A DNA stretch of 64,000 nucleotides, taken from contig CBDBOV010000005.1 in NCBI GenBank assembly GCA_965208575.1, positions 416,001 through 480,000 of the forward strand. The letters run 5' to 3'. Position numbers and translations under genes: made by a program. Below the pieces are notes generated by a model, which searched no databases, was not told where the DNA came from, and saw only the letters and a program-made list of their open reading frames with translations. Below, piece by piece: positions 7,296 through 10,374 of the stretch (position 1 is the first letter of the stretch; the number at the start of each line of letters is the position of its first letter). Source of the stretch: Spirochaetia bacterium. GTDB taxonomy: Bacteria > Spirochaetota > Spirochaetia > SZUA-6 > Bin103.

Positions 7296-7422
7296 ATCCT
7301 CAACATCGCCGACGTTGTTGACAACGACCGCTACGCGGGCATCGCCCAGCCACGTTCCAGGGCTTATTCTGGAGCCCGGCTGCGCTTCCCGGTACGCGAA
7401 GTGCGGGGATATTGCAATCGCC

Positions 7423-7442
7423 ATTTCGTGAATTCGCGAAAT
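7423..7442. promoter_or_regulatory. Palindromic operator-like motif ATTTCGTGAATTCGCGAAAT next to a TTGACA
   Basis: Near-perfect palindrome. The 14-bp core recurs at 10283 and 11159; TTGACA at 7442-7447. Confidence 0.55.
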
Positions 7443-8404
7443 TGACATCGAGCCTCGTGTCGGCGATTGGGGTCGATGCAGTTGATTTCGCGAAGCGGGT
7501 GCGTCACGATGGTGCGCGAGTGGTGGGACTCAAGCTGCACGACGTGAATTTGCCGGCACGCGGCGCGATGCGATCGGTGTACCAGGAGATGCTGAGCCGT
7601 CCAGCTATCCTGATCGCCATCGTCATGTTGGCCGTGGCCGCGTGCGCGGTGCTCGGGCCGATGGGGACCTATGATGCGCTTACCGCGGGGCAGCGCTTGG
7701 CGTTCGGTGCGTTGTACGCGGTTCTCGGCTGGCCTCTCGGTTACGCGGCAGTCGTGGTGGCGGCATACTTCTTGCGCCGCCAATCTGCGCTGACGATGGC
7801 CGTGACGCTGACGGCGGTGGCGCTGTTCGTGTCCTTGCCATGTACTGCGGTCGTGCACACGGTAGAAACGCTGGCGCATCCGCACTATTCCGCGTCCGCC
7901 GGCCTGACGCGGTTGTACGTTCAGGTGGCGACGGTAGCGGTGGTGTACGACCTTCTGTTTCTGTACTTGGTGTACGTGCGCACCAGGCACGGCCACGCGC
8001 TGGCGGCGGCTCGAGTTTCCAACACCAACAACGCCGTCACGGCCGCTCCTCCCGCCGGCGAGCCGGTCGACCAGGATGGGGCTGGCTCCGCGACATCTCC
8101 GGCGTTCACTTCCGCCGCCACCGGAGGTGCGAGCGCGTCCTCGGACGCCGGTGGCGCCGCGATCGGTAGGCGCCGCGAGCCGGACGCGGCACCCGCTCAT
8201 CGGCACCCGGAGCCGGGGCGCAGCTCGCGGGAACTGGACGGTACGCGGGACGACCGGGGCGAAGGCGTCTCGGAGTCGCCGCTTGCAGAGCTTGGCAGCG
8301 ACGTGATCTTCCTCAAGAGCTATCCCACCGGCCCCTGGGCCGGCGCAGTCATGAAAGAAACAAGGGTGAGCTATAGTGTGGGCAGAGTTCTGGGTGGAGC
8401 GCGA

Positions 8405-8580
8405 AAGTAGGCCGGCGCGTCACTGGCGTTACGTTCTGCGAACCCGTTCAAGAGCTTGGCCCCGGGGCGGGTGGCGTAGTCATTGGTGAGGTTGTCAGCC
8501 GGCGCGGCCGGGTGGCGATCATCCCGTTCAGGAGAATACCTGCTACACACGCCTTGGCCGCACCACTCAGTCGTAGCGGA
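8405..8580 (+). ncRNA. Putative IS110 bridge RNA (target-binding and donor-binding loops)
   Basis: CCCGTTCAAGAG (TCAAGAG at 8448-8454 equals the target) and CCCGTTCAGGAG (TCAGGAG at 8528-8534 equals the donor end), each inside a predicted stem-loop. TATAGT at 8372-8377 could be its -10. Confidence 0.7.
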
Positions 8581-8586
8581 GGTTTC

Positions 8587-9975
8587 ATGGCACGACGCAG
8601 ACACAGACGCAAGGGCAAGGGCAGTCGCACAGCGCAACCAAAGGTGATGCACCCGGACGCTGCCGGCTTGGACATAGGCGCTACCGAGGTGTACGCGGCT
8701 GTGCGCCCGGAGCGCGACCCGGACCCGATCCGGAACTTTGCTACGTTCACCGCGGACCTGCACGCCTTGGCCGACTGGCTCAAGGAATGCGAGGTCACCA
8801 CGGTGGCGATGGAGTCCACCGGTGTGTACTGGATTCCGGTGTATCAGATCCTGGAGGCACACGGCTTCGACGTGGTGCTGGTGAATGCGCGTCACGTGCA
8901 CTCGGTACCCGGTCGGAAGTCCGACGTGGCCGACTGCGAGTGGTTGCGCTACCTGCACTCGGTGGGATTGCTGCGCGGCTCATTCCGCCCTGCCGACGAG
9001 GTGTGTGCACTGCGCTCGGTGCTGCGCCATCGCGACACCTTGATCAAGATGGCGTCGCGCAGCGTGTTGCACATGCAGAAGGCGTACAGCCAGATGAACG
9101 TGCATCTGCACCATGCCATCTCTGACCTGACGGGGACGACCGGTCTGGCCATTACGGACGCTATCCTGGCGGGTGAGCGGGATCCGGCGCGGTTGGCCGC
9201 TCTGGCCGACCGGCGGATCAAAGCCAGCCGCGAGACCTTGATCAAGGCGCTGCAGGGCGACTGGCGCGCCGAGCACCTGTTGGCGTTGCGGCACGCGCGA
9301 GCGACCTATGCCCACTACCAACAACTCATCACGGAGTGCGATCAGGAAATCGAAGCCGGCATCCGCGCGTTCGAAGCCAGCAGCGAGCCACCCGGCGCGG
9401 TGGGCGACGACCCACCGGATGAGGGAATCGATGCGGAGCCCGAGGCGCCAACCGAGTCACCGGCCAAGCGGTTCGACCTGCGCGGCCACCTTACGCACCT
9501 GTTCGGCACTGACCTGACGCTGATTCCCGGCATCGGCGAAAGTACGGCGCTGGTTCTGTTCACCGAACTCGGCCCGGAACTGTCCCGCTTTCCGACCGCA
9601 CCGCAATTCGCCTCCTGGCTGCACCTGTGCCCCCACAACCAGATCACCGGCGGCAAGATCATCAGCTCGCACACCGGTCGGGGCACCAATCGGGCCGCCC
9701 AGGCGCTGCACTGGGCGACCCAGTCGTTGTACCGCAGCCCATCGGCCCTGGGCCAGCACTTCCGCCGCATGCGGGCGCGTCTGGGTACTCCCGAAGCGAC
9801 CACTGCAGTCGCGCATAAACTGGCTCGGATCATCTACCATCTGATCACGCATCGCGTGGCCTACGATGACAGCATCCTCGCCGCCGAGGAGCGCCAGGAC
9901 CGGCGCCGCTTTGAACGCCGGCTCCGAAGGCAGGCACACGCACTCGGTTATGAGCTTGTCCCGGAGGCCGCCTGA
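8587..9975 (+). CDS. IS110-family DEDD recombinase/transposase
   Basis: AGLDIG, MESTGVYW, KSDVADC (RuvC-like DEDD); IPGIG, FASWLHLCP and AVAHKLARIIY (C-terminal domain). GGAGG RBS before ATG 8587. Confidence 0.95.
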   Translation: MARRRHRRKGKGSRTAQPKVMHPDAAGLDIGATEVYAAVRPERDPDPIRNFATFTADLHALADWLKECEVTTVAMESTGVYWIPVYQILEAHGFDVVLVNARHVHSVPGRKSDVADCEWLRYLHSVGLLRGSFRPADEVCALRSVLRHRDTLIKMASRSVLHMQKAYSQMNVHLHHAISDLTGTTGLAITDAILAGERDPARLAALADRRIKASRETLIKALQGDWRAEHLLALRHARATYAHYQQLITECDQEIEAGIRAFEASSEPPGAVGDDPPDEGIDAEPEAPTESPAKRFDLRGHLTHLFGTDLTLIPGIGESTALVLFTELGPELSRFPTAPQFASWLHLCPHNQITGGKIISSHTGRGTNRAAQALHWATQSLYRSPSALGQHFRRMRARLGTPEATTAVAHKLARIIYHLITHRVAYDDSILAAEERQDRRRFERRLRRQAHALGYELVPEAA

Positions 9976-10374
9976 TTGTTGTTTCTCAGGAGTGAGGACC
10001 ACTATGTCCAGGTGCGGACTTCGGCGGGCTCGGCGCTGATCAAGATGCGGTTTGCGGAGGCCATCGCGGAGCTCGGCAGTGCGGGAATCCAGGTGCACCG
10101 TTCCTACTGGGTTGCTTTCCACCACATGAGGGGATTGACGAAGCGCGACCGGAAGCTGATGTTGCGGCTGAGCGGCGACCACCTCGTGCCGATAAGTGCC
10201 CGCCACCGTGTCGCGGTTCAATCGGCATTGCAATCGCCGAAGCAGGGCGTGAATTCGTCAGATTAGCGTCCGGAAGCAGCGAATTTCGCGAATTCGCTGC
10301 TGGTCGATGCAGACCGAAGCGCCTCACGCTTGCGGTCTCACCAATGGAGGCCATGCGTTGCCGATAATACTGGC

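Follow-up and report, generated by a model that had tools for sequence, protein, structure and literature searches.

A multicopy IS110-family insertion sequence from a Spirochaetia bacterium with a predicted bridge RNA upstream of its transposase gene and guides in IS1111-type order

We analyzed a stretch of 64,000 nucleotides (the window) from a Spirochaetia bacterium (GenBank assembly GCA_965208575.1, contig CBDBOV010000005.1, positions 416,001 to 480,000 of the forward strand), in which a gene for a LytTR-domain protein (7412–10266) is split at 8319/9993 by an insertion sequence (IS) of 1673 bp (8320–9992). Positions without a contig name are those of the window, and all features located by them lie on its + strand. 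The only long gene of the element encodes a transposase of 462 amino acids (8587–9975; ATG at 8587, stop at 9975), which leaves a left non-coding end of 267 bp and a right end of 17 bp. The left end contains two parallel motifs, CCCGT-TCAAGAG (8443–8454) and CCCGT-TCAGGAG (8523–8534). The element is very probably an active or recently active member of the IS110 family that chooses its insertion sites with a bridge RNA, and the DNA encoding this RNA would lie upstream of the transposase gene.

The boundaries of the element rest on its multiple copies, which have the same ends, and on an empty site in a related genome. The source genome (G000; 6.5 Mb in 6 contigs, 67.3% G+C) contains 15 full copies, each of exactly 1673 bp and 100% identical, spread over 5 contigs with 14 different left and right flanks. 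In a second genome of the same genus (G006), which has an intact orthologue of the host gene, both flanks adjoin without the element (TCTTCCTCAAGAG/TGAGGATCAC, in short form ...CTCAAGAG/TGAGGA, the slash marking the junction). Removal of 8320–9992 in silico yields one open LytTR frame of 393 codons (...DVIFLKSEDHYVQV...), with the Pfam LytTR domain on 9994–10263. These results bear out the boundaries and the restored target that had been proposed for this element in an earlier model-made interpretation of the window, hereafter the sequence-only reading. AG is found at both junctions and once at the empty site, and the element shows the family trait of a shared core dinucleotide with no terminal inverted repeats. 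AG 8318–8319 and AG 9991–9992 form this shared core, and a boundary at 8318–9990 is equally valid.

The identical copies fit copy-and-paste spread. They could also be explained by a dead relic whose match between guides and ends is mere history and whose copies arose by segmental duplication or assembly error. Some duplication of flanks has occurred: a partial right-end copy (95% identity) on contig C2 (51410–51817) and a full copy about 700 bp from it share their right flank, a local duplication of the end together with its flank. The assembly is estimated at 95% complete with 5.75% contamination. However, the variety of flanks on both sides across contigs, the 462-codon frame that is open in every copy, and the empty site in a relative all contradict this explanation, and we consider a relic extremely unlikely.

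Assignment of the transposase to the IS110 family, which the sequence-only reading had made, is confirmed by matches to Pfam DEDD_Tnp_IS110 (PF01548, E = 6.4e-20) and Transposase_20 (PF02371, E = 1.5e-11) and by a score of 251 bits, against a cut-off of 140, for NCBIfam NF033542 ("IS110 family RNA-guided transposase"). Residues D29, D113, and D116 are assigned by motif only; the E76 motif, AMESTG, aligns with IEATG of IS621. A PDB search gave a weak match to the IS621 chain (E = 1.3e-7, 34 bits), and pairwise comparison with IS4321 gave E = 8e-8, with 25–28% identity over two parts of the protein only. A tblastn search of plasmids returned 448 records, of which the best had 50.7% identity, and provided no name for the element; the listed annotations read only "IS110 family transposase," the sole exception being H60, a partial match under an unrelated gene.

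The left flank ends in TCAAGAG in 14 of the 15 copies, which defines a left target TCAAG followed by the core AG (8313–8319, within the interrupted host gene) and agrees with the expectation of the sequence-only reading that other insertions would have TCAAGAG-like targets. TCAAGAG occurs 346 times in the genome: 14 occurrences are occupied, 15 are guide-coding DNA within the copies, and 317 are free. The base 5' of the occupied sequence is C in 11 of the 14 sites (G in two, A in one), compared with C in 93 of the 317 unoccupied sites. Right flanks are weakly constrained. A pyrimidine followed by G (YG) stands after the core at 8 of 14 occupied and 70 of 317 free sites (one-sided Fisher p = 0.006), and the first base after the core is C at nine sites, T at three, and G and A at one each.

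The 15th copy lies head to tail behind another copy on contig C4 (about 1265899–1269244, loci L074 and L089), outside the window. These identical copies have one AG in common, and the donor junction that had been predicted for the circularized element, CAGGAG/CTATCC, is present there as DNA. Insertion beside the right end of a copy already in place would produce the tandem, given that TCAGGAG and the target differ at one of seven positions (the near identity of the donor and target left halves had already been pointed out). Re-insertion at the occupied left junction would produce it equally.

Letters and coordinates of the two motifs in the left end (TCAAGAG at 8448–8454 and TCAGGAG at 8528–8534, each after CCCGT) are as first reported, and the pattern CCCGTTCARGAG occurs twice in the window, compared with 0.01 expected from 100 shuffles. 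The putative target guide, UCAAGAG (8448–8454), equals the left target plus core and would pair with the - strand. The putative donor guide, UCAGGAG (8528–8534), equals the last seven nucleotides of the element, where the left donor and core (TCAGG+AG, 9986–9992) form the right end. We compared both motifs with their DNA partners in three sets of relatives: 52 loci with 42–69% protein identity (Acidobacteriota, Pseudomonadota, Campylobacterota, and Holosporales); families with 74–81% DNA identity in six genomes from two genera of the same bacterial family; and a truncated relative in the source genome. Across about 60 related copies, both motifs change along with the flank and the right end.

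For the target guide, per-position agreement of the five core-proximal nucleotides is 0.63–0.95 with the left flank of the same element versus 0.24–0.70 with the flanks of other elements, and none of 10000 permutations reached the observed total (38 loci). Guide and flank agree at 7/7 positions in 17 of the 22 copies of the closest relatives (74–81% DNA identity), with one mismatch in three copies, two in one, and three in one; the guides of these relatives read TGTCAAG, AGTCAAG, AGTAAAG, and TGTGAAG. The truncated relative (L017, contig C4 146529–147225, 74% identity) has the target guide TGTCAAG and the left flank TGTCAAG. Its gene ends abruptly at about position 2205 of the locus beside a 13-bp inverted repeat, GGTAGTGGGTCAA...TGACCCACTACC, which may be another insertion.

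The donor guide is matched still more closely. In 35 of 36 full-length relatives, an exact copy of its 7-mer lies 10–119 bp beyond the transposase stop codon (10–58 bp in all but L043), and column-by-column identity between guide and right end is 0.97–1.0. Eight versions were found: TCAGGAG, AAAGAAG, TTAGAAG, TTGGGAG, TTGAAAG, TTGAGAG, TTAGGAG, and TTAAGAG. The sequence-only reading had equated the motifs with left target plus AG and right end plus AG, and this covariation across relatives upholds both equations. It had also placed a core of AG or GAG on the transposase strand. AG closes both motifs in all relatives except L028 (where the donor segment ends in AAAG and the core is displaced by one base in the alignment); the core is therefore AG and not GAG.

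Directly after the target guide, the dinucleotide CU (8455–8456) resembles the handshake guide of IS621 in position and equals the first two bases of the element. The same identity holds in 36 of 38 loci, in the versions CG/CG, TC/TC, CT/CT, TT/TT, and CA/CA. The AA that follows the donor guide does not match the right flanks of the element and matches partially in relatives. Guidance of the element by a bridge RNA is well supported in silico by these covarying pairs.

The proposed RNA body (8392–8568, about 177 nt) would form a three-way junction composed of a closing helix, a target-binding loop, and a donor-binding loop. The closing helix pairs 8392–8397 with 8563–8568 and 8399–8401 with 8559–8561. 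In the target-binding loop (8410–8461), a basal helix (8410–8413/8458–8461) is followed by apical pairs of 8425, 8426, 8428, and 8429 with 8445–8442. In the donor-binding loop (8462–8557), an outer helix (8462–8469/8550–8557) and an inner helix (8470–8472/8538–8540) are followed by apical pairs of 8485, 8486, 8488, and 8489 with 8525–8522. We placed six helices on an alignment of 37 relatives (A1) and found 77.4% of cells paired, versus 69.6 ± 0.6% in shuffles (0 of 500 as high) and 34–53% when partners were slid. The covariation score was 0.333 versus 0.202 in shuffles (37 sequences), and 24 of 32 pairs show changes on both sides. Pairing reaches 98.6% in the basal helix of the target loop (double changes in three of four pairs), 80.6% in the outer helix of the donor loop (double changes in seven of eight), and 100% in the apical helix of the donor loop. 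The closing helix alone is 53% paired on A1, a low value because clade B (L024–L065, Acidobacteriaceae and relatives) is out of register there; its arms are complementary by eye (CCGGUCGGAUG/CAUCCGACCGG). The loops are paralogues of one another, both with a 5' strand that ends in CA(C/U)U, an apical hairpin closed by GG.G(U/A)/(A/U)CCC, and a 3' strand GU-N5-AG-NN-U. The conserved helices place both motifs on the 3' side of their loops.

This placement conflicts with the fold that the sequence-only reading had drawn, an RNA of the IS621 type in which both motifs are 5'-side left guides within stem-loops of their own (8410–8509 and 8510–8568) and right guides are tentatively assigned to TCATT at about 8480 and GTAGC at 8573–8577. 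In IS621, a guide that reads as left target plus core is indeed the 5'-side left target guide, and the complementary runs GGCCG/CGGCC and GGGTGG/CCACTC are present in this copy. However, the stem-loops are not kept in relatives: 49.5% of cells are paired versus 47.6% in shuffles (86 of 500 as high; 37 relatives), slid controls do as well, and part of 8490–8520 is missing in relatives of the Holosporales type. The conserved clamps are different helices, and the strand order is of the IS1111 type. Moreover, the two-nucleotide extension that covaries with the element start stands where, in IS621, the handshake guide follows the 3'-side guide. Neither right-arm guide found support, and GTAGC lies outside the closing helix and the conserved fold, beside the ribosome-binding site. 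An architecture of the IS621 type is accordingly very unlikely for this element.

The compensatory changes also bear on the possibility that the motifs act as DNA, either as transposase binding sites or as decoys that copy the half-sites, and that the protein chooses the site. The motifs lie within a fold with many compensatory changes, a pattern to be expected of an RNA but not of protein sites; elements with closely similar transposases (74–81% DNA identity) differ in their sites as they differ in the motif; and RNA guidance has been shown experimentally in the same family. What speaks for action as DNA is the absence of the left end from the RNA data sets examined, the use of guide-coding DNA itself as a recombination site in one relative (L114, described below), and the subterminal repeats, which show that DNA-level signals are also present. 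We judge it highly improbable.

In RNA-guided targeting as we propose it, the right half of the target would be read by the 5' strand of the target loop. This strand, GGCGCGUCACU (8414–8424), is a candidate right-flank guide that would pair with the + strand and fits weakly in the present element. In clade B, it covaries with the right flank: CGCCGA-C occurs with TCGGC in 12 loci, CGGGGA-C with TCCCC or TCCCG in three, CGGCGA with TCGCT in one, and CCGGGA with TCCCA in one, with a partial match or none in three other loci. The right flank of L092, GCATCGCC, is a perfect 8-nt complement of its own GGCGAUGC, and flank base 1 can pair with column 8420 at 81% of 27 loci. The predicted RNA order is thus the complement of the top strand (right half) first and that of the bottom strand (left half) second. 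IS4321 of plasmid R751, which we read as a reference, has AAAACGGAA downstream of its gene (L126 14571), the reverse complement of the right junction TTCCGTTTT (14730); it is followed by the hairpin GGCTCATTGAAGCC, then GTATATTTT, and then CTGG. The segment GTATATTTT (TATTT) resembles the left flank ...TTTATTT and occupies the same frame as GU-N7-NN-UGG of the present element. For the right half of the donor, we tried GGCGUAGU (8473–8480) as a guide and rejected it; it can pair with G+CTATCCC, but an A/U difference among relatives is unmatched in the DNA.

These features suggest a model in which the bridge RNA is encoded on the transposase strand of the 267-bp left end. UCAAG-AG in the target-binding loop reads as the + strand of left target plus core and would pair with the - strand, CU reads as the first two bases of the element, and UCAGG-AG reads as its right end. 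The right flank would be bound on its + strand by the 5' strand of the target loop, as comparison shows for relatives. On the - strand the core reads CT; in this view, the 3'-strand guide together with its two-nucleotide extension would occupy exactly the place that the right target guide and handshake guide have in IS621. By this analogy, RNA and DNA are probably arranged as in IS621, but in the reverse orientation with respect to the element body. The element would insert without duplication when the circle junction CAGGAG/CTATCC recombines at AG with ...TCAAGAG/N. We infer that the element produces this RNA and is programmable.

Several observations weigh against this model. The minimum-energy fold of 8380–8590 is no better than that of shuffles (z = -0.41) and hence uninformative, and an Rfam scan of 8000–10300 at E up to 10 gave no relevant family, the only hit being a chance match to a long non-coding RNA. 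Two metatranscriptome contig sets match parts of the transposase gene only (95–99% alike) and nothing on 8250–8798, and two raw-read RNA runs gave 0 reads on the region; neither result is a test of transcription. The permutation figures overstate independence because the relatives are kin and clade B dominates the counts. The right-flank guide is also at odds with the present element in that the register of column 8420 predicts A or G after the core, whereas 12 of its 14 sites have C or T. A search for a right-target guide in this element over nine offsets and two pairing rules gave a best p of 0.005 before correction for 18 tests, a value that is not secure once corrected; this is the fit of the YG signal to a register shifted by one base, and YG is absent from six sites of a relative whose 5' strand is identical. 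For a right-donor guide, which would read the element start, no covarying register emerged from the donor-loop 5' strand at all offsets, from a column-by-position scan, or from close relatives compared by eye. Finally, Thr354 of the transposase (9646–9648, QITGGK) aligns with the catalytic Ser241 of IS621 (YESG). Threonine is also found at this position in close relatives, in L023, L045, and L047, and in IS4321, and serine is found in clade B. Either the threonine acts as the nucleophile or the alignment is one residue off.

Both ends of the element contain further signals. An 8-bp inverted repeat, AGAAACAA at 8356–8363, is perfectly matched by TTGTTTCT at 9979–9986. Repeats of at least 5 nt (mean 7.5) occupy the same places in 30 of 30 relatives with both ends and exist in three covarying versions (GTTTC/GAAAC, GTTAC/GTAAC, and GTTCC/GGAAC). 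A palindrome, CCGGCCCCTGGGCCGG (8329–8344), lies between the element start and the left repeat, and a hairpin with different letters is found at this place in several, although not all, of 12 folded relatives (most clearly in L022, L023, L032, L042, L047, and L050). Within 8351–8378, ATGAAA abutting the left repeat is followed after 16 nt by TATAGT (8373–8378), a candidate -10 box for the RNA that was recognized by eye and that has TATACT or a similar sequence as its counterpart in relatives. ATGAAA and TATAGT may constitute an internal promoter, unlike the junction promoter of IS621. A consensus scan of 8200–10100 for promoters and terminators found none and did not call TATAGT.

We compared the element with IS621 and the rules for the IS110 group (Durrant et al. 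2024, PMC11208160; Hiraizumi et al. 2024, PMC11208158) and with the IS1111-group systems IS4321/IS5075, ISEc11, ISPa11, and ISKpn4 (Siddiquee et al. 2024, PMC11187229), relying on selected passages of these papers. In IS1111-type seekRNAs, the top-strand complement is described as lying 5' of the bottom-strand complement (PMC11187229), and the guide order of IS621 and ISEc21 as opposite to this (PMC11208160, PMC11187229). Handshake guides of IS621 are described as lying directly 3' of the 3'-side guides and as pairing with non-cognate DNA next to the core after strand exchange (PMC11208158).

The present element resembles the IS1111 group in its target loop, which consists of a right-flank complement, a hairpin, and a left-flank-like segment (as in passages of PMC11187229 and in our own reading of IS4321), and in the subterminal inverted repeats that flank the donor junction. 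With IS4321 it shares threonine at the IS621-serine position (STGG in IS4321, ITGG here). Unlike the IS1111 group, it has the RNA region upstream of the transposase gene rather than downstream, although a few IS1111 members with an upstream non-coding region are mentioned in PMC11187229. Its repeat is 8 bp versus 11–13 bp, and outside the repeats lie 36 bp at the left end and 6 bp at the right end versus the 7 and 3 given in that paper. It differs from IS4321 in the length of the transposase (462 versus 334 amino acids), in the limited identity noted above, and in its core, which is AG where we read TT in IS4321.

With IS621 the element shares the RNA in a long left end combined with a short right end, an RNA of about 177 nt with two pseudo-symmetric internal loops for target and donor, the two-nucleotide handshake after the 3'-side guide, and a CT core on the strand paired by that guide. 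It differs from IS621 in that the left half would be read by the 3'-side guide and the right half by the 5'-side guide, and in that the core on the transposase strand is AG rather than CT, as in the relatives examined. In addition, a closing helix around both loops replaces the separate 5' stem-loop, the left end contains the subterminal repeat and a hairpin, no junction promoter was recognized in the scan of 8200–10100, and the protein matches only weakly. Judged from its sequence, the element mixes IS1111-type polarity and subterminal repeats with the upstream RNA of the IS110 type. Our full-text searches yielded no description of an upstream bridge RNA with IS1111-type order; the supplementary tables of PMC11208160 may list the clade. 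It is tempting to speculate, although we put the chance at somewhat below even, that the element and its relatives in Acidobacteriota, Pseudomonadota, Campylobacterota, and Holosporales and on many plasmids represent a third architecture of bridge-RNA insertion sequences. With similar reserve, we would define that architecture by IS1111-type polarity and subterminal repeats together with an RNA located after the donor junction and upstream of the transposase gene.

Unusual junctions were observed in several relatives. L075 (genome G005) contains two different relatives in tandem: the right end of the first (...TCAGAAG; donor guide TCAGAAG) is followed directly by the start of the second, whose target guide is TCAGGAG; the right ends of relatives therefore act as near-targets. 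In L114 (genome G014, contig C2, about 2412248–2415400), a full copy runs at its right end straight into CTTGGTCCC; this sequence begins with the base that follows the target guide in a second copy, from which about the first 132 bp are missing. This is the product that would be expected if a tandem donor junction had recombined with guide-coding DNA as a pseudo-target and the intervening piece had been deleted. L022, from a metagenome-assembled genome (MAG) of Acidobacteriota (69% protein identity), has a right junction that runs into an (AAG)n microsatellite continuing the AAAGAAG end. Eleven bases upstream of its left junction lies CCCGTAAAGAAG, which is identical to the element's own donor-loop segment. 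In clade B, about 25 elements from different MAGs occupy near-identical sites of approximately the form ATTAGTACCGAGAAG/TCGGC, from which it follows that a conserved or repeated host sequence is targeted.

The knock-out of a LytTR regulator gene by a multicopy IS is unremarkable for the host. The interrupted gene (its right part at 9993–10266 of the window) has several paralogues in the genome, two of them just upstream of the window (contig C5 411574–414204 of the source genome). Two further speculations accompany the third architecture and call for the same reserve. Because the handshake dinucleotide is the same as the first bases of the element, a left junction that is already occupied would act as a "locked" substrate, and this would provide built-in immunity against re-insertion. 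Guide-coding DNA would serve as a pseudo-target that drives deletions in tandem copies. The target is effectively 7–8 nt with a weakly specified right half, which bears on the discussion of half-site recombination.

Bridge recombinases are being mined as genome-writing tools, and assignment of guides by analogy with IS621 would mis-programme the present clade, since in each loop the long, specific guide lies on the opposite side. The same clade also provides a natural reprogramming series in near-identical scaffolds, in which TCAAGAG, TGTCAAG, AGTCAAG, AGTAAAG, TGTGAAG, and TCAGGAG each match their own sites. The finding bears on the relation of the IS110 and IS1111 branches. If the third architecture is real, the position of the RNA at the left or right end and the polarity of its guides would be separable traits, and this clade would represent the stage at which the junction crossed the RNA gene.

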